A DNA stretch of 64,000 bases from Burkholderiaceae bacterium (GTDB lineage: Bacteria > Patescibacteriota > Saccharimonadia > Saccharimonadales > AQU-01). The translations under genes were made by a program, and so were the position numbers. Under the pieces are notes generated by a model. It ran no database searches and had not been told where the DNA came from. It worked only from the letters and a program-made list of their open reading frames with translations. Shown piece after piece: positions 5,503 through 37,636 of the stretch. The stretch lies in assembly GCA_043788365.1 (NCBI GenBank), contig JAYVTZ010000005.1, forward strand, positions 13,249-77,248. The letters run 5' to 3'. Numbering within the stretch: position 1 is the stretch's first letter; every line of letters starts with the position of its first letter.

Positions 5503-5510
5503 AGCCTCCT

Positions 5511-9062: not shown

Positions 9063-10277
9063 ATGCAAAGTGATGACTCAGCAAAAAAATTAAATCGTAA
9101 TATTACTCTTTTTGGTGTCTACAAAATATTTACAAAACGAGTTTTTATTCCACTTACAACTATTTATGCGACTCAGCAAGCCGGTCTCAATATCCAACAG
9201 ATTGGTTTCACTACAGCAATCGCATCAGTAACTAGCCTCCTGCTTGATACCACAACTGGCTACTGGGCAGATGTTCACGGGCGTAGAAAAAGTGCTCAAG
9301 TTGGTTCAATTGCCGCCGCACTGTCTACTCTTATGTATGTTTTTAGCACAAACTTCATAGGCATCCTATCGGCATCAATTGTTATGGCGATAGGCTATTC
9401 GTTTATGAATGGTGCAATTGAGGCATTAATCCACGATACTCTGGTTTCACTTGGCCAAGAAGGTAGCTATTCAAAAGTAGCTTCAAGAGCACAATCCTTA
9501 AGTTTAGTCATAAATGCCGTCTTCGTTAGTCTCGTGACCTTGCTTTACCCAATCGACAGGCGCTTACCTTTTGTTGTCGGTTTCTTGGCATACTGCTCGC
9601 TTTATATCGTTTCATCAATGTTTACAGAGCCTCACATAGTGCATGAAGTTACTCAGGTTAAACTCAACTTTATAAAAGCCGTCAGAATGCTTTTGACAAG
9701 GAATACTGGACTATTTTTCTTTTGTGTTGGTCTGGCCTACGCAGTATCTACGGGTACGACTGATGTATTCAACCTAGCATTAATTAAGCTGGGGATGCAG
9801 CCAAGATTCTTGGGCATTATATTCGGAGGCACAAGCCTTATTGGCGCCATACTAGGAATCTGGGTGCACAACCTCAAGCGGCTAAGCTTCAAACAATACG
9901 CAACATTCGATGTCACGATAAATTTGATGCCTTTTTTGGTGTATGGACTAGCCCGAAATCTGCCGCTGGCAATTTTAATATTTGTTATTAATTTTAGTTT
10001 TTGGCGTTATGAATCAATAATCTATCAACACTATGTGCTTGAGATTTATGGCACTAGTCGTTATAAAGCGACGATTGTATCACTTATGACAAACTTCCGC
10101 TCGCTTCATGAAATATGGATTGCCTTGGCAATAACCAGTGCCGCGAAACACTTCGGAATCCTGAATAGCATTGCCTACAGCTCGATATTTATTGTATTGT
10201 TCTTGCCCTTATTCTTGTTTTCAATCAGCCAGTTTTCTGCCCATGCTCGAGCCGATGTAAAATCGTTGGCCCAATAG
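9063..10277 (+). CDS. MFS-type transporter
   Basis: About 12 predicted hydrophobic segments. The DVHGRRK loop motif is typical of MFS. Confidence 0.8.
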   Translation: MQSDDSAKKLNRNITLFGVYKIFTKRVFIPLTTIYATQQAGLNIQQIGFTTAIASVTSLLLDTTTGYWADVHGRRKSAQVGSIAAALSTLMYVFSTNFIGILSASIVMAIGYSFMNGAIEALIHDTLVSLGQEGSYSKVASRAQSLSLVINAVFVSLVTLLYPIDRRLPFVVGFLAYCSLYIVSSMFTEPHIVHEVTQVKLNFIKAVRMLLTRNTGLFFFCVGLAYAVSTGTTDVFNLALIKLGMQPRFLGIIFGGTSLIGAILGIWVHNLKRLSFKQYATFDVTINLMPFLVYGLARNLPLAILIFVINFSFWRYESIIYQHYVLEIYGTSRYKATIVSLMTNFRSLHEIWIALAITSAAKHFGILNSIAYSSIFIVLFLPLFLFSISQFSAHARADVKSLAQ

Positions 10278-12010: not shown

Positions 12011-13855
12011 TTAAAATGAGGTCTTATTGACTCTTGATTTGGCTTCATTAGCGACCGTCGACAGAAATTCCTCTATGGCTACAGCTTTGTGCTCTGGCTG
12101 AACTTCCAAATCTTTGCGGATTCGCGGCATTAGGTCGCCACCGGCTAGTTCCTTCTCGCCAATGACTACCGTATAGGGTACTTTCCACATCTCGGCGGCG
12201 CGGATTTTCTTACCGACTGATTCGTTGTCGTTGTCGACTTCGACTCTTACACCTAGTTCGTTTGCCTTGTCAGCCATTTTCTTAGCAAACTCAACCGTCG
12301 CATCTTCCTGATTAACAGTAATCAGTCTGACCTGCTCGGGCGCTAGCCAAACCGGGAACTTACCAGCAGTGTGTTCGATGTAAACTGACAAAAATCGCTC
12401 AAACGAACCCAGTAGCGCCTTATGAATCATGACCGGCCGTTGCATCGAACCATCAGCGGCGGCATATTCTAATTGGAAGCGCTCCGGTTGAACAAAATCT
12501 AGCTGTTCGGTCGCCAATTGCCACTCACGGCCAAGGGCATCAGTCGCCATAATGTCGATTTTAGGACCATAGAAAGCTGCCTCACCGACACCTACAAAGT
12601 AATCAAGTTCGAGTTTCTTGGCGACGTCCTCAAGAGTTTTCTGGGCGCTATCCCAAAGGTCTTTCTCGCCTAAATATTTATCAGAATCGTCACGGAAACT
12701 TAGGCGGGCCCGCCACTTTAGTCCAAAGACTTTATACATATCCTGAATCATCGTCATGATAGATGTAAATTCCTCCTCAATCTGATCAACTCTACAAAAT
12801 ACGTGAGCGTCATCTTGAGTAGCACCACGTACTCTTGATAAGCCGTGTAGCTCACCATTCTTTTCGTCACGATAAACTACGGTGTTCTCCATGTATCTTA
12901 TCGGTAAATCACGGTAGCTTCGCGGCCTAGATGCGTAAATCTGGGTATGGTGCGGGCAATTCATCGGTTTCATCATGAACTCGTCATCAGACTCATAACT
13001 TGTGACCGTGAAACGTTCTGGATATTTGTCGAAGTGACCTGAAGTTTTATATAGATCAACCTTGGCAATATGAGGAATGGCAACTTTTTGATAACCGGCC
13101 TGCTTTTGCAATTCTTGCGAGAAAGCGCCAATCTCATCTCTTAAGATTGTGCCTCTAGGTGTAAATAACGGTAGTCCTGGTCCGACTAAATCTGAGAATA
13201 CAAACAAATCAAGCTCTTGACCCAGTTTGCGGTGATCACGCTTCTTGGCTTCTTCGAGCATTTCAAGATGAATTCTTAGTTCTTTTTCATTATTAAAGGC
13301 TATACCGTAAAGTCTCTGCATCTGAGCATTTTTGTCATTACCGCGCCAATAAGCACCACTCACACGCATTAATTTGAATGCCCCGACTTTACCGGTTGAT
13401 TCAAGGTGTGGACCTCGACATAGATCTGTAAAATCACCATTAGTATAGAAAGAAACTCTGTCTACTTGAGCTTCGCCGCCACTAATTGTACCCAGTTCAT
13501 CAGCGTCTAAATCCTTAGCAACCGTTGTTCCAGCCCTTTTGAGGTCATTTAACAGCTCTTCCTTATAAGGCTGGTGTTTTTCCTTCGCCCAGGCAATCGC
13601 CTCGTCTATCGGCTTTTCTGTGCGTTCAAACGGTTGATTATCAGCTATGACCTTCCTCATCTCGTCCTCAATCCGGCTGAGGTCCTCTTCTGAGATGCTT
13701 TGCTCGCCTAGATCAATATCATAATAAAAACCATGCTCAACCACTGGGCCAACGCCAAATTTAGCCTCTGGCCAAAGGTGTTGAACAGCCGTAGCGGTAA
13801 TATGCGCCAAACTATGTCTCATTGCATGTAAATTGTCATCTTGATTGTCTGCCAT
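12011..13855 (-). CDS. thrS: Threonyl-tRNA synthetase
   Basis: Full-length ThrRS-like sequence with second-additional-domain HxxxH (MRHSLAHITA), class II core (FRDE..., GATQDDAHVF), and anticodon-binding C-terminus. Confidence 0.95.
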   Translation of the reverse strand: MADNQDDNLHAMRHSLAHITATAVQHLWPEAKFGVGPVVEHGFYYDIDLGEQSISEEDLSRIEDEMRKVIADNQPFERTEKPIDEAIAWAKEKHQPYKEELLNDLKRAGTTVAKDLDADELGTISGGEAQVDRVSFYTNGDFTDLCRGPHLESTGKVGAFKLMRVSGAYWRGNDKNAQMQRLYGIAFNNEKELRIHLEMLEEAKKRDHRKLGQELDLFVFSDLVGPGLPLFTPRGTILRDEIGAFSQELQKQAGYQKVAIPHIAKVDLYKTSGHFDKYPERFTVTSYESDDEFMMKPMNCPHHTQIYASRPRSYRDLPIRYMENTVVYRDEKNGELHGLSRVRGATQDDAHVFCRVDQIEEEFTSIMTMIQDMYKVFGLKWRARLSFRDDSDKYLGEKDLWDSAQKTLEDVAKKLELDYFVGVGEAAFYGPKIDIMATDALGREWQLATEQLDFVQPERFQLEYAAADGSMQRPVMIHKALLGSFERFLSVYIEHTAGKFPVWLAPEQVRLITVNQEDATVEFAKKMADKANELGVRVEVDNDNESVGKKIRAAEMWKVPYTVVIGEKELAGGDLMPRIRKDLEVQPEHKAVAIEEFLSTVANEAKSRVNKTSF

Positions 13856-13860
13856 TTCTT

Positions 13861-14047
13861 GGCCTCCTTGTTTATAGAAATAAAAATCGCGCTAACTTTA
13901 GTCGTATGACATCTGTTATGCGCGTCTCGGGTCCGACATGATTGTCAGACGGTTCCACCGGACTTTCACTCATGATACTCGTGTTATCGCACACTGTAAC
14001 CGCTGGCGAAGCTCCATGGTTGGTGAGTCCACTTCAAAGCTTAAATA
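13861..14047 (-). promoter_or_regulatory. Candidate T-box riboswitch leader of thrS (Thr ACC specifier, antiterminator/terminator)
   Basis: In thrS sense: T-box core GUCCGGUGGAACCGUC. Antiterminator A1 13963-13958/13930-13924, 7-nt bulge UGGAACC 13957-13951, A2 13950-13944/13937-13931. Terminator CGCGCAUAAC...GUUAGCGCG + AUUUUUAUUU (13924-13878) lies just upstream of SD AAGGAGG. ACC followed by A sits in a hairpin loop at 14024-14021. Confidence 0.55.
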
Positions 14048-22387: not shown

Positions 22388-22525
22388 TTTATTAACATTA
22401 ACATATTTAGGAGACTTTACACCTTTGCTCCACCGGATAGCGTCGGGCTTGCGCGCCGGCTAACCTGCCCGCGATTTAGCAAAGTTAGCGAAATCGCTTT
22501 GCCGGTTCAAATCACTGGTGTCTCT

Positions 22526-22573
22526 CCAAAGTAAATGAGCCATCCCCTTTCGGGAATGACTCATTTACTTTGG
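22526..22573. other. Perfect-length 22-bp hairpin (GNRA loop on minus strand)
   Basis: CCAAAGTAAATGAGCCATCCCC-TTTC-GGGAATGACTCATTTACTTTGG. The minus-strand loop is GAAA. Confidence 0.8.
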
Positions 22574-22612
22574 CGGGATATCGAGTCGGTCTTCCGAACT
22601 GTAGCTACCCCC

Positions 22613-23359
22613 TTAAGCGCTCTTTAATGGGGATTGGCTAACGAATAGTCTCTTCACCACTGAGTCGGTAAATTGGAAGATATCTAGCACCATTTGTTCA
22701 TCTATGTGTTTCTTAGCCATTTGCCAGAGAAAAGGGTTGTCCTCGGCTTTTAGGTTGTATTTCTTAACGATTGTTTTAGTTTTAAGGTCGTATGCTGATG
22801 CTTCTGGCATGACAGCACCAGTAGTTATTTTTTTGATGTTGTAATGGAGGTAAGGATTGCGAACCTTGTTTTTAAAGGTTTTGAGTCTCTTTACCTCGTC
22901 AGGTTTAAATAGCTTGAGGCTTGCAGCTTCATCAATTACTTTGCCCAGTTCCATATTTTCAATTCTATCCCACTCTTTTTTGTCATATACTTCAACACCT
23001 TTAGTGTGGTCAACGATTGCGTGTTTAATGGCGAACTCTACTAGCACTGCTGATAGGGTTATCGCTGCACCGTTTAGGCCAAATAGTATGCACTCCACAA
23101 TTTCAGCGTAAAGACTTGTTATTGGTGGTAGGGCTATCTGTGGAGGTGCCGGAAGTTGCTTTACTAATTTTTTAGCTTGGTCTTGTCTGCCTTTAAAGAG
23201 TTGCTCAACATATTGCTCATTTGTAATTGGTTCTTTTTTGTCTAACTTAAGACCATCTTTGACCATTTGGTCGATTGTTTCGGGAGTGGCAACGAACTGG
23301 GTTGCGTCTTTAGCATATTTCCCCAAGAGTTCATTTATATCACTAGGATCATTAGCCAT
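22613..23359 (-). CDS. Hypothetical protein with HEPN-like RNxxxH motif
   Basis: 248-aa ORF, alpha-helical looking. KNKVRNPYLHYN contains R-N-x3-H as in HEPN RNase motifs. Confidence 0.6.
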   Translation of the reverse strand: MANDPSDINELLGKYAKDATQFVATPETIDQMVKDGLKLDKKEPITNEQYVEQLFKGRQDQAKKLVKQLPAPPQIALPPITSLYAEIVECILFGLNGAAITLSAVLVEFAIKHAIVDHTKGVEVYDKKEWDRIENMELGKVIDEAASLKLFKPDEVKRLKTFKNKVRNPYLHYNIKKITTGAVMPEASAYDLKTKTIVKKYNLKAEDNPFLWQMAKKHIDEQMVLDIFQFTDSVVKRLFVSQSPLKSA

Positions 23360-23367
23360 AGAACTCC

Positions 23368-23805
23368 TTATTCCACAGCGTTGCTATCATCTAATATATT
23401 GTGCTTAGTGGTAAAGCGTAGATAGTAACCAAACGGATCAGCAGTTCTAAAGTCCTTACTTCCCCAAGGGCGTAAAACTAATGGCTCGATAACATTGGCA
23501 ATGTCTTTAACCTCTTGATAATAAGAATCTATGTCATCAACCATGATGACTACCTCTACGCCGTAGCCTTTCATAGTTTCTTTAGGGAATCGCTTAAAGT
23601 AGGTTTGGTCATACACTGCGTTTGTACCTGACCAAAAACATAGGATTGTGCCATCTCTTTGTATTACTAGGTAACGCTTATCGGCTTCTGGTTTACGCTC
23701 CCAAACTACATCAAAACCTAGCTTAGAGTAGTAGTCTTTGACTGGTTTGAAGTCAGGAACATGAAGTTCAAGTTGTAAGTTGTTACTGGCTGGCTCACCA
23801 CTCAT
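23368..23805 (-). CDS. VOC-family protein (glyoxalase/bleomycin-resistance fold)
   Basis: LHVPDFKPVKDYYSKLGFDV...EVVIMVDDIDSYY...RPWGSKDFRTADPFGYYLRF is typical of this fold. Confidence 0.8.
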   Translation of the reverse strand: MSGEPASNNLQLELHVPDFKPVKDYYSKLGFDVVWERKPEADKRYLVIQRDGTILCFWSGTNAVYDQTYFKRFPKETMKGYGVEVVIMVDDIDSYYQEVKDIANVIEPLVLRPWGSKDFRTADPFGYYLRFTTKHNILDDSNAVE

Positions 23806-24743
23806 TTATTTACCCTATTTGGGAACTCGTTCTTTGTTGCACTGACCATGTTATCCGTCCATAGCACTACAGAATTATGCATTGATTCAAAGGTAGTCCA
23901 TGCGTATGAAGGTGCAGCCCAAACATTGCCCTCAAACTTAGTAAACTCATTTGGTTCGCCCTCAAAACCATAACCAAATAAATCACCTTTTGCCACCATA
24001 TCAAGTACCTTTTCTTGGTTGAATAAGCCGTGTGCAATGTCTATTAAGATTGCGGATTTCTTTATTGATTTAATGTGTTCATCGCTAATAAGTGCTAACG
24101 TTTCAGGGTTCTTAGCTGCCGTTGGGAATATTACGTCTGAGGTACTTAGTAACTGTTCAAGCTCAACTTTCTTGTAGGCTTCGTTGGTTGATGAGCGTGA
24201 CCAGTAGACAACATTCATACCAATGCCTTTACACGCTTCTGCAATAGCACTGCCGATATGTCCTAGACCAATGATGCCAGCAGTCTTACCTTTAAGCTGA
24301 ACACCACGATACTTCATAAAGTCTTTATCAAAATCCAGTGGGTAGTTGTCTTTAATAAGTCTTGGTGTTTGACGAGCCAAGTTAAACATCATCATGACTG
24401 CCCATTCTGCGACTGCTTGAGTAGAGAAGTTTACGATTTGGCAGATTGGTATATTCTTATTGTTAGCCGCATCTTGGTTAACCCACTCAAAACCGGTAGA
24501 AGCAATTAGTATCGCTTTCAAGTTGGGTATGTCTTTATAGTCATTACTGGTTAACTTCCAGCTAACGTAGTCAGGGTTAAGGCACAACAGCCGTTCCTCT
24601 TTACCCTCAAATAACTCTTTGCAGTTACTTAGCGGAGCAATCTCTTTTGTGACTACTAAATCAAGGCTGCTACCCTTTAACTTGCTTAGAAGCTCATCGG
24701 TAATAAGGTCGTCCCACAAGGGGTCAAATATAAATGCTTTCAT
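23802..24743 (-). CDS. D-isomer-specific 2-hydroxyacid dehydrogenase
   Basis: NAD-binding GKTAGIIGLGHIGSAIAE and a downstream catalytic region. 4-nt overlap with the VOC gene. Confidence 0.85.
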   Translation of the reverse strand: MKAFIFDPLWDDLITDELLSKLKGSSLDLVVTKEIAPLSNCKELFEGKEERLLCLNPDYVSWKLTSNDYKDIPNLKAILIASTGFEWVNQDAANNKNIPICQIVNFSTQAVAEWAVMMMFNLARQTPRLIKDNYPLDFDKDFMKYRGVQLKGKTAGIIGLGHIGSAIAEACKGIGMNVVYWSRSSTNEAYKKVELEQLLSTSDVIFPTAAKNPETLALISDEHIKSIKKSAILIDIAHGLFNQEKVLDMVAKGDLFGYGFEGEPNEFTKFEGNVWAAPSYAWTTFESMHNSVVLWTDNMVSATKNEFPNRVNK

Positions 24744-25123
24744 TATCCCTCCTTAAAGTAATTTTGCTCTGGATTTGTGAAATGCGTGAGCTTAAACATT
24801 TGTTTCATCTCTTCGGGTGTATTAAGCCTGACAATCTTGAATGTGCCTGACGTTACTTTCTTTATGTAGTCGTGTTCAATAGACTGTATAAAGCACAGTC
24901 CCCAGTAGACCCATTTTCCATCTACGTCTTCAACTAAGAAGTTTCTAACAGGAGGTACTTTATAAATGCGAATATCGGGCTTGGCCTGGAACTTAAATAC
25001 CTTACCACTCACTTCATCAATCGTGTAGGGTGTTTTAAGATGTGTCTCTAGGTCAAGTTCTGCTGGGAAGCCCTGTTCCTTAGTAATTCTCAAGGTATCG
25101 TTAATTTCAATAAAAGAACCCAT
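24743..25123 (-). CDS. Hypothetical protein
   Basis: 126-aa ORF, translationally coupled on both sides (1-nt overlaps). Confidence 0.6.
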   Translation of the reverse strand: MGSFIEINDTLRITKEQGFPAELDLETHLKTPYTIDEVSGKVFKFQAKPDIRIYKVPPVRNFLVEDVDGKWVYWGLCFIQSIEHDYIKKVTSGTFKIVRLNTPEEMKQMFKLTHFTNPEQNYFKEG

Positions 25124-26553
25124 TATTTAAACCAACCTTCCTTTCTAGCTTCCTCCAATGGCAGCATCTTTGTGCCAGCATAGGTTATGGTTTTTGCATT
25201 GCCGCTACTATCAAACTCGTAAAGTATCGTTTCGCCAGGCGAACTGTAGCCGCTTGCTTCGTCTATCTTTAAAGTCTTGCTATCAATAACCGACAACTTC
25301 TCGCATTGTTCAAAGTCGTCATTCCAGCCAGTTGGTTCTATTGCCATTAGTTTGTTGCCTACTGCAATTATGTCTGTTGCACCCCAGGTGCCATAGAATC
25401 TGCCCGTAAAGCTCTTGATGTCGCCCGTTTTATGCCTATCGGGTGTATCCTGCTGGAAGGTGTCAACAATGCTCAAAATGCCAGTAGTGGCCTTCTTAGC
25501 TAGACCTGCATTTGCGTTCGTGAGAGCAGTTATTACAAGCTGACGTTTAGCATCAAATTGAGTATTAGTTATAAAGCCAGGAAAGCCACCACTATGACCA
25601 TAGATAGCCCAGCCTTTCTTTTTGTAGTTAACCATGCCTAGCCCATACCGCTCCTTAGTAAACTTAGCTTTCCAGTAGCCATGCTGCATCTCACGCTTTG
25701 ATGTATCGCTTATTAACGCATCGTTGCCAAAGAAGTGGGCAGAAAAGTATTTACAAACATCTTCGGCCGTTGAATAAAAGCCAGTGGCTGACGACATTGC
25801 ATTGGTATCTATGTGGTCAAACACGCGACGATCTCTATTGAATAGTTCAATGCCATAACCAGTAGCTAGCGTTTTCCTGGATTTTGTGTCTAAGTCAGGT
25901 CCGGTAGACTTAAGCCCTAGTTTGTTAATTATGTTCTCGGTTACATACTGTCGGTAGCTTTTACCACTTACTGCTTCAATAAGTAGCCCAAGGTATGAAA
26001 AGCCAAAGTTGGAATACTTAAATTCTACGTTAGTATCGTAAATTAACTTTGCATTAGTAATGTACTGCTTAAGCTCGGCTTCATCAGGAAACTTCCGTAG
26101 CAGTTGCCAGTAGTTGGCATCCTCGCCATCTCGTATCACTCCAGCCGTGTGGTTTAGCAGTTGGCGAACAGTAACTTGGCTGATGCGTTTGTCTTTAGAT
26201 GACTTAAACCACTTTAGGTGCTGGCTAACGGTATCATCAAGCTGTAGCTTGCCAGCTTCTTTGAGTTGCATAATGGCAGTTGCTGTAAATGTTTTGGAAT
26301 GCGAAGCAATACGAAAGGTGTGACCAGCGGTCAACTTGTCTTTTTTGGCTACGTTGGCATAACCAAAAGCTTTGGAGTAGATGAGCTTATCGCCATGTTG
26401 GATAGCAACGCTCATAGCCGGAACACGGGAATTATCAAAGTTGAAAGTCAGCCAAGAATCTATATATTCAACAGCCACTTTGAGTTTTTGGGTATTTAAA
26501 CTTTCCATATATAGCATTATAAGGTGTTGCAGCCATTTTGAAAGCACGAGCAT
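25123..26553 (-). CDS. Serine hydrolase of the beta-lactamase / penicillin-binding fold
   Basis: SxxK motif in FRIASHSKTFTA, YSNFGF (YxN-like), and HSGG. The start is possibly the internal Met at 26508. Confidence 0.85.
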   Translation of the reverse strand: MLVLSKWLQHLIMLYMESLNTQKLKVAVEYIDSWLTFNFDNSRVPAMSVAIQHGDKLIYSKAFGYANVAKKDKLTAGHTFRIASHSKTFTATAIMQLKEAGKLQLDDTVSQHLKWFKSSKDKRISQVTVRQLLNHTAGVIRDGEDANYWQLLRKFPDEAELKQYITNAKLIYDTNVEFKYSNFGFSYLGLLIEAVSGKSYRQYVTENIINKLGLKSTGPDLDTKSRKTLATGYGIELFNRDRRVFDHIDTNAMSSATGFYSTAEDVCKYFSAHFFGNDALISDTSKREMQHGYWKAKFTKERYGLGMVNYKKKGWAIYGHSGGFPGFITNTQFDAKRQLVITALTNANAGLAKKATTGILSIVDTFQQDTPDRHKTGDIKSFTGRFYGTWGATDIIAVGNKLMAIEPTGWNDDFEQCEKLSVIDSKTLKIDEASGYSSPGETILYEFDSSGNAKTITYAGTKMLPLEEARKEGWFK

Positions 26554-26642
26554 AACACTGAATGTGGATATTGAACTTTCTTACCCATCATTGGTTATCT
26601 CTTTCTCTGTTATTATTAAAACAGCTAAGCGGGAGATGATTC

Positions 26643-27593
26643 ATGGGTTGGTTCAGCAAGAAAAAGACAGTGCCTAAAATAACTGTCGAGATAAATGGTA
26701 AACCAGTCCAACCTAAACGTCCGCCACTGCCAACTCCTAAAGGTATAAATATTGTCCCGGACTTCAATTTACTTAAGTCCGTCTACCAAAATAACCAGAA
26801 CTTCGGCGAAATGGACACGGTTGCAATGGTCAAAGAAGTTAACCCTCACGCTGACACGTCAACTTGCCCATACTGTGGGGTGAAGCACGACTTTGTAGCT
26901 AAACGGGCGCGTAAGTGTCCAGACTGTGGCAAAAACATGGTTGTTAGAAGTGGGTTCTTTTTAACAGACGATCAAGTTGAAAAGTTTCAATCTAAAATGC
27001 AGGGCTTCTATGACAAGCAGAACGCCGAAACCAGACTGGCAACTGAGTTAAAGACCATTCAAGACGCTCAACTTAGCAAAGACCTTACCCGTCTCTACCT
27101 TGGCTTTGCCGAGGGCTTTCGTAGAGCTGCAAAGCTAGATAACCAAAAAGATATTGAAGGCTTCGACTATTGGGATAGGTCATGGCGATATTACAACCAA
27201 GCTCGTGTAGAAGATGTTAACTCAAATCAGTATTTCAATCAGCAATCTAGTATTTCATCTGCTATGTGCGAAGCGTTAATAGATAGAGCCTTAACCAAGC
27301 AATCAGGCGATAGTCGCAACAAGACACTAAAAACTGCTCTGCAATTGCTACTAACATCAATTGCCGAAAGCCAAAAGTACAATGACGGAATGTCTACCGG
27401 AACGTGGGTTTACGAGAGGTCTAAGTTGTTAATGCGAGAATCAGGTGCTGACAATAATGACCTCCTGCAAGCTGGTGAAAGAGTCGCTAAGTCTTTACGG
27501 CTTAGTGGTTCGCTACTAAATAGGTTCAACGCATCTCTGAAAGCCATTCAAGACTACGAGTTGTTTGGCGATGTCCAGTTATTTAGTTATTAA
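26643..27593 (+). CDS. Hypothetical protein with zinc-ribbon
   Basis: CPYCGVKHDFVAKRARKCPDCGKNM followed by a helical domain. SD-like GGGAGA upstream. Confidence 0.6.
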   Translation: MGWFSKKKTVPKITVEINGKPVQPKRPPLPTPKGINIVPDFNLLKSVYQNNQNFGEMDTVAMVKEVNPHADTSTCPYCGVKHDFVAKRARKCPDCGKNMVVRSGFFLTDDQVEKFQSKMQGFYDKQNAETRLATELKTIQDAQLSKDLTRLYLGFAEGFRRAAKLDNQKDIEGFDYWDRSWRYYNQARVEDVNSNQYFNQQSSISSAMCEALIDRALTKQSGDSRNKTLKTALQLLLTSIAESQKYNDGMSTGTWVYERSKLLMRESGADNNDLLQAGERVAKSLRLSGSLLNRFNASLKAIQDYELFGDVQLFSY

Positions 27594-27680
27594 GTCCAAC
27601 TCAACTGAGCTACTAGGTTGGCACGTCAGCCCCACAGAGGCGGTGTGTGCGGTTTTAAGGGGCCGAGGGGCATCATTCTA

Positions 27681-27770
27681 GGTCTGATGGCTCATCTGGC
27701 GCTAAAAGCCACACTATTGGGCAAATGTTGTAATTCTCTAATGTTTTCGGTATTGCGCCAATGATTTACT
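27681..27770 (+). repeat. tRNA-Val 5'-like segment homologous to the region upstream of tRNA-Val
   Basis: GGTCTGATGGCTCATCTGGC (14 of 20 identical to tRNA-Val nt 1-20). Shared blocks AGCCACA, AAATGT, and CCAA(A)TGATTTA appear in the same order as 14665-14741. Confidence 0.55.
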
Positions 27771-28339
27771 ATAGAGGTATGGGACGAGGCTATCGGATAA
27801 GTAAGAACGTGGCAGAAGACTGCTTTAAGTTGTCCATTTTTGAGATGCGCCAGAATGGTTTCTTCACAAAATTCTTTAGTGGTGATATAGCGTGGCTAGC
27901 AGATGGTAAAAGAAGCTCAGTAGTTGCTCGTTTAGAGCCAGTAGGAGATGCCTTGCAATTGCGTTTGTTATATACACAAACTGACCATAAGACAGGTCAG
28001 AAGCAGGAATTTAACTACATCATTAACCTCACAACTACACCCTGTAACTTCGGCGATCTACGTTATTGGTTTGTATGCCCAATATCTAAGAATGGTATCA
28101 AGTGTAACAGGCGGGTTGGTGTGCTGTATAAAGGCGGGGACTACTTTGGTTGTCGCCACTGCTACAACCTTAGCTATAGGTCGTGTAACAAGAACCCCCG
28201 CTTTAGGGGCTTACCTTGGCGAGACTACTCTAGGGAAGACAAGGTAGAAGAACTATATAAGCGTATGAAGACTAAATACTATGCTGGTAAACCGACTAAA
28301 ACTTATAGGCGGATACTCCAGCTCCAACATATGATGTGA
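27761..28339 (+). CDS. Hypothetical Cys-rich protein (CxxC...CxxC zinc-finger-like, family common on mobile elements)
   Basis: TPCNFGDLRYWFVCP...CNRRVGVLYKGGDYFGCRHCYNLSYRS pattern. Confidence 0.6.
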   Translation: MIYYRGMGRGYRISKNVAEDCFKLSIFEMRQNGFFTKFFSGDIAWLADGKRSSVVARLEPVGDALQLRLLYTQTDHKTGQKQEFNYIINLTTTPCNFGDLRYWFVCPISKNGIKCNRRVGVLYKGGDYFGCRHCYNLSYRSCNKNPRFRGLPWRDYSREDKVEELYKRMKTKYYAGKPTKTYRRILQLQHMM

Positions 28340-28369
28340 TACCGTTAACCTTAATTTTGGCTATCTGGT

Positions 28370-29575
28370 TCAAGGAGTGTTTTTTAAGTCAGTAATATCA
28401 CCCAAAGCGTTGGCCAAGCCCTTTTGTACGCGTTGAGTAAAAACATCAAGCTGGGCTGAATTTATCTCTTGTATTTGCCAAGAGCTAGCTTCTGTACCCC
28501 ATTGTCGCAAGTCTTGGTCTGCTTGGCTCATGTCTCCCTTCCAGGCAACTAAGGCATCAGGTGTTGAGCCATGATAGTACAGCTTATTAGCAGCGTCTAA
28601 AGCCTTTGAATAGCTGGCATAGGAATTGTTTGTAAACTGACTGTTGAAGTTACTAAGTCTGGAAGCGGGTGAAGTAGAGTCGTTATTCAAGGCATAAAGA
28701 GCAGCAGTGGAATCAGGGTATTGTTGAGTCCCAATTGATTCTTGGCCTTGTTGAAGGAGGCTCAAGTAGAAATTTGTACTAGTTGCCAGTAAGTCAATCG
28801 CTCCAGACCTTGCATCAGCCTTTGCCTTAGCTTGGGCATCAGCTTGGGCCTTTTGGTCTGCGGCATCCTTTTGCTGTTGAGCAAGTTCATCTGCTTTTTG
28901 CTGAGCAGCATCAGCTTCTTGTTGTTTTTTCTTGTCGGCTGAGTCCTGTGCTTGCTTGGCTAATTCGGCTGTCGTATAGCGATGTACTGTTATGGTTTGC
29001 TGGGTAACCCTGTTGTTAGTGCCACGAGCAACTATAGTTATTTGGTTATCGCCTTGAGCTAGGGTTAGCTGCGTATTCAGATGACCATTATTACCTACGT
29101 TTACTGGCTTGCCGTTTATAGTTACGGCGGCGTTATCAGGCGTTATATCAGCCACCAGAGCGTACTGGCTACCACTAATGGCTGCTGTTGAACTCTTTAT
29201 GTTAATTGTTGGTGGAGCAAATACTACTGCTAGGATAAATACTCCTACTATTCCAACTGTACCTAGCCCTGATATAACAAACTTTGGAGTTTTACCCCAG
29301 TCCATATAGCGCCACATGAGATAGAGGCCAACGGGAAAGAACAGAATTAGTAGTGCGATAGTGGCTGGTTTGGTGTGCAGAAGCCTTCTGATCTTATCTC
29401 TTATATGTTCAACCCGATCGCCAACTATTCGTTTTGGCAGGAAGTAAGTGATAACCAAGCCCAAAATAGCTAAGTACCATAAGTTAATAATTACTATAAG
29501 TGCTGCTATGGCGAGAATGCCCGTAAGAATCTTGTGTCTTTTAAACCATTTGCCGTCCTTTTTCTCCTTGGACAT
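28370..29575 (-). CDS. Hypothetical membrane protein with Ig-like segment and Q/A/K/D coiled-coil
   Basis: N-terminal transmembrane helices and the KKKQQEADAAQQKADELAQQQKDAADQKAQADAQAKAKADA repeat-like region. Confidence 0.6.
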   Translation of the reverse strand: MSKEKKDGKWFKRHKILTGILAIAALIVIINLWYLAILGLVITYFLPKRIVGDRVEHIRDKIRRLLHTKPATIALLILFFPVGLYLMWRYMDWGKTPKFVISGLGTVGIVGVFILAVVFAPPTINIKSSTAAISGSQYALVADITPDNAAVTINGKPVNVGNNGHLNTQLTLAQGDNQITIVARGTNNRVTQQTITVHRYTTAELAKQAQDSADKKKQQEADAAQQKADELAQQQKDAADQKAQADAQAKAKADARSGAIDLLATSTNFYLSLLQQGQESIGTQQYPDSTAALYALNNDSTSPASRLSNFNSQFTNNSYASYSKALDAANKLYYHGSTPDALVAWKGDMSQADQDLRQWGTEASSWQIQEINSAQLDVFTQRVQKGLANALGDITDLKNTP

Positions 29576-29678
29576 AGTCGTCTCTCCTTGTATATGGATT
29601 TAGTTGGTATTTCACGGCAACCAAAAAGCCTGCCGCTAAGCGATGACTTGCGCCACCCATACCAGTTTCCCGATATGA

Positions 29679-29724
29679 CCATATACAACAGTGAACCTAA
29701 CGACAGGCTGTTTGTTGTATATGG
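29679..29724. promoter_or_regulatory. 12-bp perfect inverted repeat in a divergent promoter region (candidate operator)
   Basis: CCATATACAACA (29679-29690) pairs with TGTTGTATATGG (29713-29724), with additional inner complementarity. Confidence 0.45.
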
Positions 29725-29852
29725 GTTTATGGCCATGCCCACTAAGTAGGTTTAGGTCATACTAACTTTTAACACTTTGTGTGTTACCCAGAGTATAAAC
29801 CACAAACGTACTCCTTAGCTATATCTGTAGTGTAGAATTTAGGTACACGACC

Positions 29853-30788
29853 ATGATAAATATTAGCGACAACCAGCCAGATGATTCAGCAATTGATGAG
29901 GAATTTGAGATTTTAAGTTCTGCGCTTTTAGCTCAAGAGATAAAAGATAAAGAGACGACCGGTAAAGTAATACGCCTAGAACGAGAGGAACCTAGCCATC
30001 ACCCTAAAAACGACCTAGCTAACGCTCTCAGGCATCATCTCAAAGAAGATCAAGAAGCTATCCTTGAACATGATGATATAGATTCAGACTACGAACACGC
30101 AGGAGCTAGAGACTTTAGCCCATTTGGCCTAGACCCACACAGAGATAAATTACTTCATTATCTAGATGATAAGCATATTATTAGCCTTACACCCCATATT
30201 GAACAAGAAGAGGTTCCTTGGGGTGGTACTCACTATGACGTGGTTCAGTTTTACGAAGTTAGCGTTAATGCAAAGAAATTTGCCAGCTATTATTTAGAGA
30301 CTATCAAGAAAGCAGAGACGTATATTGATGCGTACATAAAACAAAGGGTTAGCAACGATAAAATTTCCGCAAAGTCTACGGATAAAGTGCAGTCCCAAAA
30401 AGAGCAAGAACGTTACGTCAGTGACACTACTTATACTATTTCGTTAAGGTTAATTCAAAGAACATTAATTCTATACATACATGACAATAAAACCAACATT
30501 AGAGTGAAGTACTTTAAGACTAAGAGCGGCAACAACTTAAATGCTTGCCAGGTGCTGTGTGGACGTAAAAAGCGCCACCTAACAAAAGAGGAATTGGGCA
30601 TTAAAGAAGCTAAATCCACAGTCAAAGACCTTGGGAATACCTTGGGTCTTAAAGGTCCCTTGAGGGAACTATTCTATGTGTTTGACACCAAAGCACAAAC
30701 AGCGCTTCTAAATGATACAGTCAAGATAAATGGTGTCGAATTAGAGAATCTCGTAAAATACTGCAACACGCATTTTCGCCCTCGCTAG
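29853..30788 (+). CDS. Hypothetical protein (acidic N-terminus)
   Basis: 311-aa ORF, no recognisable motif. Confidence 0.55.
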   Translation: MINISDNQPDDSAIDEEFEILSSALLAQEIKDKETTGKVIRLEREEPSHHPKNDLANALRHHLKEDQEAILEHDDIDSDYEHAGARDFSPFGLDPHRDKLLHYLDDKHIISLTPHIEQEEVPWGGTHYDVVQFYEVSVNAKKFASYYLETIKKAETYIDAYIKQRVSNDKISAKSTDKVQSQKEQERYVSDTTYTISLRLIQRTLILYIHDNKTNIRVKYFKTKSGNNLNACQVLCGRKKRHLTKEELGIKEAKSTVKDLGNTLGLKGPLRELFYVFDTKAQTALLNDTVKINGVELENLVKYCNTHFRPR

Positions 30789-30886
30789 AGAGTTTGAGAG
30801 ATTTATAACAGGTTAGAGAATAGCCTGTTTTTTATTTGTGGAGCTATTGAGAGTATTTGAAAAAACAGTACCGCGTAATGTAGCTC

Positions 30887-31399
30887 ATGAGCATACATGA
30901 CCAACAAGCAATAGCTAAATACTTTACCCACCCGCCAGTCCTATATATAGGTGGGCTTGGACAAGTATTTTCACTTCAAGCTGGAATACTGCTAAGCCAA
31001 TTACTTTTTTGGCATGGGTTAGGGGTACGCAAGGACGGCTATATTTATAAGACTGCTGACGAGCTTCGTTCTGAACTTGGTATGAGTCGCAGCAATCAGG
31101 AAACCGCTATAAAACAATTAGTCGAGTGTGGGGTTCTTGAATATAAACTAGCGCAAGTACCAGCTCGAAAACACTTCAAGTTAAACATAGCAAGGCTACA
31201 TGAGTTGCTTCCAAGTTTGAAGAGAACCAGCAAACTGAATTATCCAAATCCCCCACGCTACTATGTTGGAAACGTGCAAACTATTACAGAGAATACACAG
31301 GAGACTACTACAAAGAATACTTTACCGAAAATTGATAAAAATAATTTCTTAAAAGAGCGCAGCAAACTCATAAACAGTAAATCAGCCAAACCTCCTTAG
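30887..31399 (+). CDS. Hypothetical protein with winged-helix-like segment (replication/organiser-like, speculative)
   Basis: YKTADELRSELGMSRSNQETAIKQLVECGVLEYK resembles an HTH/wHTH. Confidence 0.5.
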   Translation: MSIHDQQAIAKYFTHPPVLYIGGLGQVFSLQAGILLSQLLFWHGLGVRKDGYIYKTADELRSELGMSRSNQETAIKQLVECGVLEYKLAQVPARKHFKLNIARLHELLPSLKRTSKLNYPNPPRYYVGNVQTITENTQETTTKNTLPKIDKNNFLKERSKLINSKSAKPP

Positions 31400-31453
31400 A
31401 CGACTAATGGACTAACTACTTATTTGATAACTAATTGAAAAGGACTTACTAAG

Positions 31454-32251
31454 ATGAAAGAACTCACAAAGGCTATCGCATTTTGCCGAGTAGCAACAAA
31501 AGAACACAAAGACGAATTACTAAATTACCAAAAACAGCAAATAGAAAAATACGCCAAACAGCACAATATCGAGATTGTGAAATATTGGGAAGCAGTCGGT
31601 TCGGGCCAGTGCGCCTTAGCAGAAATGCATAGGTTCTGCGAAACCTTTGAGGATATTGTGTACCTTTGCGTTACTAGACCCGACCGCATCTCGCGGTCGC
31701 ACGAAGAGTATCTTTACTGGATAACCAATTTTTGGAATTTGGGCATACAACTTACATTCGCGAAAAGCCAACGAACAGTAGATACTGACGATTTCTTGTT
31801 AGAGGAGATGTGGCGAATGCAGGGTGTTTACAACGCACGCATGATGTCTGCGTCCGTAAAACGCGGGATGCATCAAAAAGTCGCACAAGGCTTAACTCTG
31901 TGCAAACCACCTCTGGGATACCAGACCACAACTGTAAGCGGTCTGTTTACGCAAGACAAACTTGGTAAGCAAATGAAAACCGTCTTGCACGATATCGCTA
32001 TCGAATCTGTGTCTTTCAAAAAGGGCTACGAGCAATTAAGCAAAGCCATTAAGCAGCGCACCGGTAAACCATTAAGTAGAGGTCAGTTCAGTCGACTACT
32101 ACGCAACGTGTACTACACGGGTCGAGTGCAGTACGGTGGCCAGCAGCATCCTGGCAAACACTTACCGCTACTTAGCGAAGAGCAGCGAAACAAGGTTGAA
32201 CAGCTCTTTGAAGCAAGTGAGCTAGGACATAAACAGGTAATGAACCAGTAA
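31454..32251 (+). CDS. Serine-recombinase-like protein lacking the nucleophile serine (truncated large-recombinase architecture)
   Basis: AFCRVATKEH in place of the YxRVS(T/S)xxQ motif (Ser to Ala). PDRISRS matches the DRLxR motif. A recombinase-domain-like region (PPLGY...YYTGRV) is present but no zinc-ribbon/coiled-coil tail. Confidence 0.7.
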   Translation: MKELTKAIAFCRVATKEHKDELLNYQKQQIEKYAKQHNIEIVKYWEAVGSGQCALAEMHRFCETFEDIVYLCVTRPDRISRSHEEYLYWITNFWNLGIQLTFAKSQRTVDTDDFLLEEMWRMQGVYNARMMSASVKRGMHQKVAQGLTLCKPPLGYQTTTVSGLFTQDKLGKQMKTVLHDIAIESVSFKKGYEQLSKAIKQRTGKPLSRGQFSRLLRNVYYTGRVQYGGQQHPGKHLPLLSEEQRNKVEQLFEASELGHKQVMNQ

Positions 32252-32265
32252 TTCTCTTGTAGATA

Positions 32266-32487
32266 TTGCTGTTACCTACGGAAGTTGCCATGAAAGCTAG
32301 TGCCGAACCTAATTACGAAAAGCTACGCCTCATACTTGAGCGTCAGCTTGGTAAAACGGTGTCGTTAGAATATGCAATCGGCACTGGCAATTTCCTGGTA
32401 AACGTGTACGAAATACTGCTATACGATGATGAGGTAACAGATGAGATTGATGGTAACATCACAGACGGTAAATACAATGAACCCTGA
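32266..32487 (+). CDS. Hypothetical small protein
   Basis: 73-aa ORF between the two recombinase genes. Overlaps the likely start of the next gene by 11 nt. Confidence 0.4.
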   Translation: MLLPTEVAMKASAEPNYEKLRLILERQLGKTVSLEYAIGTGNFLVNVYEILLYDDEVTDEIDGNITDGKYNEP

Positions 32488-34075
32488 AATAAACAAAAAA
32501 TGCATAGTATTGGCTCGTGTGTCGAGCAAAGCCCAAGAAGAAGAGGGCTACTCATTAGACGCTCAGGAAAAGTTTTTGAAAGACTATGCAAAGAAAAAGC
32601 ACTTTGATGTAGTGCGAGTATTCAGCTTTGCCGAAACCGCATCTAAAGACAAACGGCGTAAAATGTTTGCTGAAATGATGAAGTATCTAACCCAAAGAGA
32701 GCCTATTCACCTTATAGTTGAGAAAGTTGACAGGTTAACTCGCAACTCACGGGATGCCCTAGATGTTGATGAATGGTTAGCGGCAAATGGTGACCGTCAA
32801 CTGCACCTTGTGAAAAATGGCTTAGTGCTGCACAAACACTCCTCATCGCAGGACAGGTTTGTCTGGGATATTTATGTGGCCTTATCAAAGCAATACGTTA
32901 ATAACCTACGCGAGGAAGTATATAAGGGACGCATGGAAAAGCTGGCGCAAGGTTGGCTACCAGGTAGTCCGCCTTATGGCTGGATAACGGTTGGCGACAA
33001 AGGCAAAAAGATTCATGCACCTGTACCCGAAAAGATACGACTAGTTAAAAAACTGATGGAAAAATATCTAGAGCCAGGCCAATCACTGACATCTATGACA
33101 GCGGAAGCCAAGAGAATTGGTATGCGCAATGATAAAGGTAACCCGTATGGTCGTTCTGCCATAACCGATAATATCCTCAAGAATCCCTTCTACATTGGCA
33201 TCAATCACTGGGATGGCATTGACTACCCTGGCAAACAGGATAAGGTTATTAGTATAGAATTGTTTAATAAGGTTCAAGCTAAAATGCACCGTAAGTCACC
33301 ACCCAAATACCAGAAACATGATCCTGACTTCAAGGGTGTTATGCTCTGTCCCGACTGCAACGGTGTAATTACATGGGAACCCCAGAAAGGTGACTGGTAC
33401 GGCCATTGCGTTAAGTCTCGTGGCTGTCCAAAGAAGGTATGGGCAAGACAGGACAGAGTTGAGGAACAGTTATTCAAGCACTTCGAGAAGTTATTATGCC
33501 CAAGCCAGGAAATAGCTGAATGGATAATAGAATCACTGAAAGCCAAGCACCAGGACAATATGTACGACTACTCAACGTCTGTTGACCTACTCCGTGATGA
33601 TCATGACCGCAAGAAACGCCAGCTTGACCTCTTATACGAGGATAGGCTTAGTGAGCGTATTACTCCTGAGCGCTATGATGAACTGTATAAAAAAGTTGAG
33701 CAGGAGCAAAAAGATATAGAGGGTAACATCAATAGCCTTGCCGATACTGGCCGCAACCAGCTTAAAACAGGTATAGACGTTCTGGAGAAGTCTCAGCAAG
33801 CTGCTAAGGTATATGCCACTAAGTCACCAGAGGCTAAGCGGAAGCTACTCAGTGAGCTGTTTGATGTACTTTATCTTGATGGTCCTACCCTAAACGTTAC
33901 CTATAACCGCTATACAGAGGCGATTTCGGAAAGGGTCAAAAAGCACAACATGGTCGAACGTCAATTCCGAACCCACAAAAAAGCCCCCAGTAACGGGGGT
34001 AATTCGGAGCTTACTGAAGCTCTACGTACGGTTTGGCGGGCTCGACCGGATTTGAACCGGCGATCTCCTCCGTGA
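32477..34075 (+). CDS. Large serine recombinase (integrase)
   Basis: VLARVSSKAQEEEGYSLDAQ catalytic motif, VDRLTRN, recombinase domain (PPYGW), zinc ribbon CPDCNG...HC...C, and coiled-coil tail. The start is taken at MNPEINKK (the ORF track lists 32441). The last 42 nt are antisense to tRNA-Asp. Confidence 0.9.
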   Translation: MNPEINKKCIVLARVSSKAQEEEGYSLDAQEKFLKDYAKKKHFDVVRVFSFAETASKDKRRKMFAEMMKYLTQREPIHLIVEKVDRLTRNSRDALDVDEWLAANGDRQLHLVKNGLVLHKHSSSQDRFVWDIYVALSKQYVNNLREEVYKGRMEKLAQGWLPGSPPYGWITVGDKGKKIHAPVPEKIRLVKKLMEKYLEPGQSLTSMTAEAKRIGMRNDKGNPYGRSAITDNILKNPFYIGINHWDGIDYPGKQDKVISIELFNKVQAKMHRKSPPKYQKHDPDFKGVMLCPDCNGVITWEPQKGDWYGHCVKSRGCPKKVWARQDRVEEQLFKHFEKLLCPSQEIAEWIIESLKAKHQDNMYDYSTSVDLLRDDHDRKKRQLDLLYEDRLSERITPERYDELYKKVEQEQKDIEGNINSLADTGRNQLKTGIDVLEKSQQAAKVYATKSPEAKRKLLSELFDVLYLDGPTLNVTYNRYTEAISERVKKHNMVERQFRTHKKAPSNGGNSELTEALRTVWRARPDLNRRSPP

Positions 34076-34109
34076 CAGGGAGGCATGTTAACCACTACAC
34101 CACGAGCCC
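34034..34109 (-). tRNA. tRNA-Asp (anticodon GTC), CCA encoded
   Basis: Reverse complement folds as GGGCTCG/CGAGCCC acceptor, CCTCC-CTGTCAC-GGAGG anticodon arm, GCCGG-TTCAAAT-CCGGT T-arm, G73, CCA. Confidence 0.9.
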
Positions 34110-34329
34110 TCGTCGATGTGTAACGGTGGGGTAACTGAACCGCCGGCAAAACAAGTTTGACCGTCAGTTCTAGTTACCCCACCAAGCCATCTCCTCCCGA
34201 TTTCGAGAATCCTCTCTCGAAATCGATGAAGACAAGCCAAAGCTCGACCAGAGTATACTAGCAAATTACACCTGTTTATGCAACGCTTGTTATCTGTTAG
34301 AATAATCAAGTCGCCAATGTTTTAGACTA

Positions 34330-34404
34330 GCCGAAGTAGCTCAGTGGTAGAGCAGTACTTTCGTAAAGTAAAGGTCGCGGGTCCAACTCCCGCCTTCGGC
34401 TCCA
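34330..34404 (+). tRNA. tRNA-Thr (anticodon CGT), CCA encoded; unusual T-loop TCCAACT
   Basis: GCCGAAG/CTTCGGC acceptor, GCTC/GAGC D-stem, anticodon loop TTCGTAA, T-arm GCGGG-TCCAACT-CCCGC (C at position 55), U73. Confidence 0.85.

Positions 34405-36338: not shown

Positions 36339-37636
<1,298 letters not shown>

Follow-up and report, generated by a model that had tools for sequence, protein, structure and literature searches.

Introduction

Actinomycete elements of the pSAM2/SLP1 type are plasmids that integrate at tRNA genes by means of tyrosine integrases, and the integrase IntP of the myxophage Mx8 reportedly has its C-terminus altered upon integration at tRNA-Asp. According to Hudson et al. 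2015, only tyrosine-family integrases are known to target tRNA genes, and the integrases of Mx8 and SSV are named there as extending across attP, the attachment (att) site of the circular form (PMC4383910). For site-specific serine recombinases, a review of integrative mobilizable elements describes insertion inside genes, which are thereby disrupted (PMC5704250), while the survey of large serine recombinases (LSRs) by Durrant et al. leaves tRNA unmentioned in its main text and groups the targets by protein-coding genes (PMC10083194). Here, we describe a stretch of 64,000 nt from a member of the Saccharimonadales (AQU-01, Patescibacteriota; GCA_043788365.1, contig JAYVTZ010000005.1, 13,249-77,248 of the forward strand), hereafter the window, in which an LSR gene reads into a tRNA-Asp gene. 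All coordinates are window positions, and L-numbers (L001-L100) designate loci or contigs of relatives.

Our results indicate that window 22578-34040 is very probably a single integrative element of 11,463 bp (counting one copy of the core), inserted by its LSR at the 3' end of the chromosomal tRNA-Asp gene. An earlier note on this DNA, made from the sequence alone, had proposed an element of about 11.5 kb with an LSR at this tRNA, and the proposal stands. The 9-mer repeated at the two ends is weak on its own; the boundaries are fixed by three independent lines of evidence, which are empty sites, circular relatives and other integrated relatives. The enzyme family and the overall logic of such an element are already known. 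In the literature searched, by contrast, there is no description of a serine integrase choosing the 3' end of a tRNA gene as target, of an integrase open reading frame (ORF) that crosses attP at an invariant Trp/CCA codon, or of a large family of such small replicons associated with the candidate phyla radiation (CPR).

An integrase gene that ends inside tRNA-Asp

The tRNA-Asp(gtc) gene (34034-34109, minus strand; ARAGORN, Rfam tRNA 68.2 bits) is intact, and its acceptor and T-arm make up the B' arm of the att site. The LSR gene (32477-34075, plus strand; 532 aa, Pfam Resolvase and Recombinase, start indicated by homologues) overlaps it by 42 nt from the opposite strand, just as the earlier note had read it and as the ARAGORN call and the ORF end at 34075 confirm. 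The last 13 codons of the LSR lie antisense to tRNA-Asp, its stop codon TGA (34073-34075) overlaps the anticodon, and the codon TGG of Trp520 (34034-34036) is the antisense of the tRNA CCA. This tryptophan is invariant across 29 diverse LSR homologues.

The protein has the domains of its class. Its catalytic domain (PF00239, E=3.2e-18) contains R14, S16, Q20, D85, R86 and R89, all invariant among the 29 homologues, and S16 aligns with S10 of gamma-delta resolvase. The Recombinase domain (PF07508, E=2e-10) is followed by a zinc ribbon in which C291, C294 and C311 are invariant and C317 nearly so in the same set, PF13408 being recorded for many homologues; a stretch at about residues 340-440 is present where the class carries, within the zinc ribbon, the coiled-coil motif that governs directionality. 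At E<=1e-5, 893 homologues were obtained, and those with a source name come mostly from Saccharimonadales/Saccharibacteria. A single-sequence search of the PDB gave no match and a profile search matched catalytic domains only, and the score against the NCBIfam model of CcrB is 88 bits for a cut-off of 900.

Two hybrid junctions

The core TTTGGCGGG is found at 22569-22577 and again at 34032-34040, both on the plus strand and both as first reported in the earlier note. On the left, attL consists of the native tRNA hairpin, the core and the P' arm. The hairpin (22521-22568) is the chromosomal B arm, an imperfect, terminator-like inverted repeat that was formerly the native downstream flank of tRNA-Asp and resembles the hairpin of empty-site genomes; the P' arm (22578-22606, plus strand; ATATCGAGTCGGTCTTCCGAAC...) is the left end of the element and matches the attP of L009 and L008 as well as the attL of L005 and L020. 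On the right, attR consists of the P arm, the core and the acceptor/T-arm of the tRNA, the P arm (34000-34031, plus strand) being part of the LSR coding sequence and matching the attP of L009 and the attR of L004, L005, L020 and L022. The assignment of these two junctions as attL and attR, already made in the earlier note, holds because the attP of circular relatives is a fusion of the two ends of the window element.

Some details had to be revised. The hairpin at 22521-22578 has arms of 27 nt that are 85% complementary around a 12-bp perfect core, and is not the 22-bp perfect stem first described. Its proposed role as the original tRNA terminator agrees with the similar hairpin that directly follows tRNA-Asp in empty-site genomes, although a terminator scan made no call. 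Likewise, the likeness of the sequence inward of the left core to the T-arm and acceptor of the tRNA is real, but not its supposed origin as a displaced piece of tRNA, since this sequence is the conserved P' half-site of the element.

Beside the hairpin, in the left chromosomal flank (22427-22520, plus strand), a conserved non-coding sequence of about 100 nt (…CGACCGGATAGCGTCGGGCTTGCGCGCCGGCTAACC…GCCGGTTCAAATC…) adjoins the tRNA-Asp terminator. It is also present at about 4935-5050 in L011, at 5453-5546 and 5596-5710 in L016 (a tandem duplicate) and at about 4240-4340 in L018. A multi-stem fold is predicted with a few compensatory changes, and neither Rfam nor ARAGORN matched it. The sequence may represent a small RNA not described so far, or else the leader of the APH-family gene.

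Empty sites

GTDB genomes were queried with the 5' 48 nt of this tRNA-Asp, which gave eight loci. In L011 (Ca. Saccharimonas metagenome-assembled genome (MAG), CALRGT010000002.1), a tRNA-Asp that is 100% identical to that of the window has, immediately after it, the homologue of window 22577-22427 (74.7% identity), and the breakpoint coincides exactly with the shared core. Gene order is syntenic on both sides, with enolase, HAD, tRNA-Gly and tRNA-Thr on one and genes of 119 and 541 aa on the other. The same arrangement is seen in L018 and in L015 plus L016, two contigs of one MAG that overlap at the tRNA, and in L012 the native hairpin lies beside the tRNA. The empty site that the earlier note had asked for in related genomes is thereby found in Saccharimonas relatives (L011, L015/L016, L018), with core-exact breakpoints and synteny on both sides. 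Since tRNA-Asp joins the homologue of 22577 in these genomes and the breakpoint falls at the core, the insertion corresponds to 22578-34040. The window tRNA-Asp is intact and identical to that of the empty sites, its sequence being unchanged by the insertion.

Around the tRNA-Asp/Thr/Gly cluster, gene order is rearranged between relatives (window 34330-34404 versus L004 11766-11841, and 17926-19914 versus 12142-14016). tRNA-Thr is inverted between the window and L004, the genes of 119 and 541 aa lie on the opposite side of the tRNA cluster in L004, and tRNA-Asp abuts a SurA-like gene in L005. The LSR element remains attached to tRNA-Asp in every arrangement seen.

Circular and integrated relatives

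L009 and L010 are both 6845 bp long with a terminal overlap of 127 bp and, coming from two databases, are rotated by 29 bp relative to each other, which gives a circle of about 6.7 kb; L008 (5578 bp, 77-bp terminal overlap) gives one of about 5.5 kb. The attP arms of L009 and L008 match window 34000-34040 and 22578-22606. In these circular relatives, the LSR ORF runs through ...ACGGTTTGGCGGG directly into GTTTAGAGTCGGATTTCCGAA..., of which the left half corresponds to window 34019-34040 and the right half to 22578-22599. The two junctions of the window are therefore the two halves of one attP. For the window element itself, the predicted attP junction in the excised circle is ...GCTCTACGTACGGTTTGGCGGGATATCGAGTCGGTCTTCC..., and the predicted repaired attB of the locus is ...GACTCATTTACTTTGGCGGGCTCGACCGGATTTG....

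The C-terminal tails of the LSR homologues tell the same story at the protein level. In the close clade, they end in ...ALRTVW-RA-RPDSNRRSPP, the antisense translation of the tRNA-Asp 3' end (Trp = TGG = antisense CCA), and in more distant homologues they are antisense translations of other tRNAs. A minority diverges right after W-R-A/G into ...(I/L)ESDFRT..., and two such proteins are encoded on circular contigs. The circular relatives have the tails ...WRG-LESDFR and ...WRA-IESDFRTVAV and integrated copies, which read into the tRNA, have ...WRA-RPDSNRRSPP. Translated from its left 9-mer, the window reads L-W-R-D-I-E-S-V-F-R-T-V-A, the motif of the minority tails.

Two relatives integrated at tRNA-Asp were recovered with both ends. 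L005 is an element of 7.9 kb, whose attL consists of the terminator hairpin, TTGGCGGGC and the P' arm, and L020 is one of 5.2 kb. L009 also has two extra complete core plus P' sites, at 2670-2699 and 3245-3274 (39.7 and 46.9 bits with the matrix described below, of which they are training sites). Each site has an unrelated left arm and is situated directly downstream of a gene on the minus strand, in a layout like a cassette array of fossil attL sites. No extra site of this kind is present in the window element.

What the core repeat can and cannot carry

By itself, the repeat of TTTGGCGGG is weak evidence. Its chance expectation is 0.41 copies, and three copies were reached in 1 of 100 shuffles. 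The window has a third copy (36376-36384, minus strand) inside enolase near the gene start, which has no att-like context and is taken as a chance match. Between 18 and 40 kb, a direct-repeat search gave nothing above chance-level matches and no direct repeat longer than the 9-mer. A search for the longest repeat of the tRNA end chose another 9-mer, at 6681, that proved spurious; 9-mers cannot carry the argument.

A longer site is more discriminating. A position matrix of 30 nt, covering the core and P' arm, was trained on the site of the window itself together with five from L005, L008 and L009. Over the 64 kb and both strands, its sole match at >=12 bits is at 22570 (41.7 bits, a site of the training set). 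It recovers the attL of L020, which is outside the training set, at 39.1 bits, and has no match in the empty-site loci. A left junction near 26.6 kb, named in the earlier note as the alternative, was not recovered: the matrix finds no att-like site at 26.6 or 27.6 kb, so the break of L004 homology at 27.63 kb is read as a module boundary within the element, with variable cargo on one side and a conserved module on the other. The break in composition that the earlier note had called for is present, if modest. Tetranucleotide deviation in 5-kb windows is largest at 22-33 kb (z = 1.7-2.35), and the GC fraction is 0.424 in the element versus 0.445 in the flanks.

Other candidate boundaries were discarded. 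A crossover in the anticodon loop, suspected from the overlap of LSR stop and anticodon, and a left boundary at about 27.6 kb, suspected from the start of L004 homology, were both dropped as the protein tails pointed to 22569; no displaced tRNA half lies at 27.6 kb. For the breaks between Logan contigs at 28861, 34007 and 34197, a repetitive coding stretch and k-mers of the tRNA region shared with other strains are the better explanation. Among these contigs, all 100% identical to the window, L002 and L003 cross attL unbroken and end at 28861, in the repetitive Q/A/K-coding stretch, L007 spans 28834-34007 and L001 starts at 34197. The piece in between, 34008-34196 (tRNA-Asp plus 88 nt upstream), seems to be common to other strains in the sample.

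Crossover, tail exchange and a proposed substitute terminator

The identity shared by attL and attR is TTTGGCGGG in the window, TTGGCGGGC in L005 and only TGGCGGG in L020 (attL ATGG versus attR TTGG). Strand exchange therefore takes place inside TGGCGGG, a heptamer that reads antisense to CCA, the discriminator and three bases of the acceptor, so that the tRNA is not altered. Partner sites are identical over 7-9 bp only. From the window and its relatives, attP, attB, attL and attR were all recovered, as short sites with hybrid junctions. Read by eye, P' and B' share TCGA..CGG..GAAC, with GAAC 5 bp farther from the core in P'. Rutherford and colleagues are said to have shown in 2013 that an outer half-site motif of serine integrases lies about 5 bp farther out in attP than in attB, and the offset seen here would fit this spacing rule in a suggestive way.

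As the LSR ORF crosses attP, its last 12-19 residues change on integration. In the window LSR, the tail is predicted to pass from ...VWRDIESVFRTVATPLSAL (...VWR-DIESVFRTVATPLSAL) in the excised form to ...VWRARPDLNRRSPP (...VWR-ARPDLNRRSPP) in the integrated form. The LSR of L004 has an earlier stop codon and a shorter tRNA-encoded tail, and the tail beyond Trp520 is therefore probably not functional; any regulatory role is speculation.

A terminator-like hairpin with a T-run lies on the tRNA strand inside the LSR ORF (33974-33999, minus strand), 35 nt past the 3' end of tRNA-Asp, and is proposed to be the replacement terminator. It is conserved in L004, L005, L009 and L020. Its sequence lies antisense to the codons of the conserved LSR peptide ...K(N/K)TPxNGG..., a stretch that may be under a dual constraint as protein and as terminator.

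Genes and RNA carried by the element

A helical protein of 65 aa (32290-32487, plus strand) is encoded by an ORF that overlaps the LSR start by 11 nt, with tblastn matches in L004, L005, L008, L009 and L020. Among the Asp-type elements examined whose sequence extends far enough upstream of the LSR, only the LSR and this ORF are found in all; as a guess, the 65-aa product is a candidate directionality factor or regulator. Upstream of it lies a truncated serine-recombinase paralogue of 265 aa (31454-32251, plus strand; Pfam Resolvase and partial Recombinase), which has Ala for the nucleophile Ser. The motif is RVAT in this paralogue, RTAS in the L004 paralogue (8610-9077) and RVSS in the LSR, and the downstream D-R-x-x-R is kept; judged from these residues, the paralogue is probably non-catalytic.

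The part shared with L004 further contains a Cys-rich protein of 192 aa (27761-28339, plus strand) at its start, with homologues beside the LSR genes of L004, L094 and L095, a membrane protein of 401 aa (28370-29575, minus strand) with an Ig-like (Glucodextran_B) domain by Pfam, the Q/A/K-rich stretch and a 70% identical homologue in L004, a protein of 311 aa (29853-30788, plus strand), its function unknown, without match in Pfam, PHROGs or NCBIfam, and an O-like/DnaD-like replication initiator of 170 aa (30887-31399, plus strand; phrog_9773, E=4.9e-26; 75% identical in L004). Upstream of the 401-aa gene, a LOOT RNA (Rfam RF03000; 29642-29758, minus strand; 80.4 bits against a gathering score of 46.4) occupies the divergent intergenic region. 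Relatives have it at the corresponding position (L004 6607-6727, L005 7593-7710 and L008 1325-1434, all on the minus strand), which makes four tRNA-Asp-type LSR elements, in each of which it stands between the divergent genes, immediately upstream of the leftward one. Scans of L009, L020 and another eight LSR loci (linked to tRNA-Trp, -Gln or -Asn, or tRNA-less) did not detect it. Rfam lists LOOT RNA only as a candidate small RNA, and no link to such elements was found in the literature searched.

The left-hand 5 kb carries variable cargo. A five-gene block (22613-26553, minus strand; Pfam, NCBIfam), absent from empty sites and related elements, encodes a 248-aa protein and a 126-aa protein, both unknown, a glyoxalase/VOC protein (145 aa), a D-2-hydroxyacid dehydrogenase (313 aa) and a beta-lactamase-fold serine hydrolase (476 aa). 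Next to it, a 316-aa zinc-ribbon protein (26643-27593, plus strand) has weak Pfam zinc-ribbon matches and a weak homologue inside the L005 element. None of these left-hand genes meets a curated family cut-off in Pfam or NCBIfam, and PADLOC returned nothing useful for the unknown cargo. In L100 (GCA_964561555.1), an 87%-identical copy of the cargo hydrolase adjoins a different LSR that reads into tRNA-Pro, with DNA homology confined to that gene, which fits an exchangeable cargo. This LSR (L100 6236-7964, 569 aa) reads 58 nt into an opposite-strand tRNA-Pro(tgg), and 1.3 kb separate its start from the hydrolase copy. In L100, no second (left) end of the tRNA-Pro element could be located, and in L099 no LSR gene was called at the corresponding place.

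Compared with the gene list of the earlier note, the two serine-recombinase genes, the zinc-ribbon and Cys-rich proteins and the five-gene minus-strand block are all retained, while the product listed there as a winged helix-turn-helix protein is the O-like/DnaD-like initiator. Scans of the element proteins against Pfam, PHROGs, NCBIfam and PADLOC detected no relaxase, oriT-type, FtsK-like, Tra or secretion family.

A model for integration and mobility

In the model that we propose, LSR dimers would bind attP on the circular form and an attB made of the last ~20 bp of tRNA-Asp and the T-rich side of its terminator. Strand exchange would use a 2-bp crossover within TGGCGGG, probably on the TGG antisense to CCA or directly beside it. 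Integration would move the tRNA's own terminator 11.5 kb away, for which the element's hairpin and T-run in the LSR ORF would substitute, and would swap the LSR tail, since the ORF crosses attP. It would also set the LSR gene convergent with tRNA transcription, which may damp integrase expression. Excision would need a directionality factor, a role for which the candidate is the conserved 65-aa ORF that is coupled to the LSR start. For replication, the circular form probably relies on the 170-aa O-like/DnaD-like initiator, with LOOT RNA in the initiator's divergent control region, and 22.6-27.6 kb would be exchangeable cargo. As no transfer genes were found, spread from cell to cell would have to take other routes, such as natural transformation.

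Several observations weigh against a single, mobile element of this extent. The contigs of two public samples are 100% identical to the window and those from both samples run straight through attL; no same-strain empty site or circle junction was seen, in material that consists of contigs only. L004 (contig JABXNS010000043.1), the closest related element, shares only 27.63-34.1 kb, and over the 10 kb upstream of its LSR the matrix finds no P' site, so that the full left arm is not conserved as a unit. The dyad symmetry between P and P' in attP is weak and centred on a single base (odd-numbered). The role given to the 65-aa ORF is a guess, its AlphaFold2 (AF2) model having a pLDDT of 56.5. Finally, no relative of the LSR or of attP was found in IMG/VR.

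These points bear first on whether the element still moves. With the boundaries as given, it is possible, if on the unlikely side, that it has become a fixed relic which no longer excises or transfers: only the integrated form is seen in the two samples, at full identity, Pfam and PHROGs yield no transfer genes and the second recombinase is degenerate. However, the LSR is full length and has all family-invariant residues, both att sites score like those of circular relatives, and neither the small partner ORF nor the replication initiator is disrupted. Circles, differing cargo and differing tRNAs also show that the family is clearly active in nature.

The same points bear on its extent. L004 DNA homology runs from 27629 rightwards only and the cargo genes are of an ordinary Saccharimonadia type with many chromosomal-looking homologues, as would be expected if only the conserved module (about 27.6-34.0 kb) were mobile and the five-gene block and zinc-ribbon gene at 22.6-27.6 kb were its chromosomal neighbours. 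We consider this very unlikely. There is no att-like site near 26.6 or 27.6 kb, the sole core plus P' site in 64 kb being at 22570; the empty-site tRNA joins the homologue of 22577, not of 27600; tetranucleotide deviation rises already from ~22 kb; and L004 too has at least 5 kb of unrelated genes left of the shared module.

A small prophage or a phage satellite is still more improbable. Matches to phage protein families are indeed seen for the LSR and the O-like initiator, but no capsid, terminase, tail or lysis family, and no other virion structural or packaging gene, was detected (10 proteins against PHROGs, 13 against Pfam), the relatives measure only 5.2-7.9 kb, and IMG/VR is as silent on them as noted above. 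Least credible of all is a classical tRNA island with a crossover deeper in the tRNA (T-loop or anticodon loop) and 22578-22606 as the displaced, decayed 3' part of tRNA-Asp: the overlap of the LSR stop codon with the anticodon and the resemblance of this segment to T-arm plus acceptor would suit it, but the segment belongs to the element, being contiguous with the LSR 3' end in circles and conserved among elements, attP/tRNA identity ends after 7-9 bp, the earlier stop codon of L004 makes the depth of read-through into the tRNA incidental, and Pfam finds no Phage_integrase (tyrosine recombinase) domain between 22.5 and 34.1 kb. An LSR element spanning 22578-34040 thus remains the preferred reading.

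LSRs at tRNA genes across the family

The association of such LSRs with tRNA genes extends beyond this locus. Metagenome contigs from JGI were scanned with the LSR profile, which gave 80 loci, 63 of them with enough downstream sequence. The LSR ORF overlaps an opposite-strand tRNA in 21 of the 63, and in another 21, all of a shorter clade of about 496 aa, an opposite-strand tRNA follows 71-82 nt after the LSR stop. The tRNA-linked loci, about two thirds of the 63, divide into Asp (3), Trp (17), Gln (about 19) and Asn (3), and several of the remaining loci have attP-like tails. In three short-clade loci, repeats of 11-14 nt of the tRNA end are found 4.5-6.7 kb upstream. The LSRs of the short clade (21 loci among L032-L097) end in ...LIGGKI and keep the gap to the opposite-strand tRNA-Gln or tRNA-Trp strikingly constant; their attP probably lies just downstream of the ORF, not inside it.

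These loci contradict the stated rule that tRNA genes are left to tyrosine integrases, as a clade of serine integrases uses them in a non-disruptive manner with 7-9 bp of identity at the CCA/acceptor end. The way in which island finders treat serine recombinases beside tRNAs would have to change. Searches of the literature on Saccharibacteria/Patescibacteria and serine recombinases gave nothing relevant, earlier sightings in large-scale databases (TIGER) being possible. Our work provides mapped attP, attB, attL and attR sites and small natural circles (5.5-6.7 kb) for Saccharibacteria, whose mobile DNA is barely described. Since genetic tools are scarce for these bacteria, the LSRs and their sites offer candidate tools for inserting DNA stably at a locus that is conserved and harmless. 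Besides, the orphan LOOT RNA motif gains a defined genomic setting, and accessory genes such as the serine hydrolase, the 2-hydroxyacid dehydrogenase and the VOC protein travel between reduced genomes on such elements.

A broader view can be put forward as a doubtful but consequential proposal. The element would belong to a family of small integrative plasmids, large and so far undescribed, in Saccharibacteria and other CPR bacteria, and the serine integrases of this family would have evolved for attB sites at the CCA/acceptor end of tRNA genes (Asp, Trp, Gln, Asn), with the crossover in their own invariant Trp codon. If this were true, the rewriting of the C-terminus together with the placement of the gene antisense to a tRNA would constitute a built-in sensor of the integration state for directionality or expression, the extra attL-like sites of one circle would mean an integron-like collection of gene cassettes, and LOOT RNA would be a replication or copy-number control RNA.

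Comparison with known systems

With phiC31, Bxb1, A118, TP901-1, the CcrAB pair of SCCmec and XisF, the LSR described here shares the Resolvase and Recombinase domains and the four-Cys zinc ribbon. The likeness to elements of the phiC31/Bxb1 type extends to the short att sites, the few base pairs of identity at the crossover, the hybrid attL and attR and the position of the integrase gene beside attP, and a separate directionality factor is expected in both. In contrast to these elements, which target protein-coding genes or intergenic sites, this one enters at the 3' end of a tRNA gene and leaves the gene intact; its integrase ORF crosses attP, and sequence similarity to characterised LSRs is low.

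In its choice of target, the element is closer to Islander-type islands with tyrosine integrases, which also insert at tRNA 3' ends, preserve the tRNA and have the integrase gene abutting it, and to tRNA-integrating islands and plasmids of the pSAM2/SLP1 type, which are likewise small replicons with a replication gene and variable cargo. It differs from both in having a serine recombinase and a core of 7-9 bp without a long duplicated tRNA segment, and no Tra, relaxase or FtsK-like transfer gene turned up here. Finally, the closest parallel for the tail exchange is offered by Mx8 IntP and the SSV-type archaeal integrases, in which attP also lies in the integrase ORF and the C-terminal end changes on integration, Mx8 even using tRNA-Asp as well. 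Those enzymes are tyrosine recombinases, unlike the LSR of this element, and whereas SSV splits its integrase gene, here the last 12-19 residues are exchanged.

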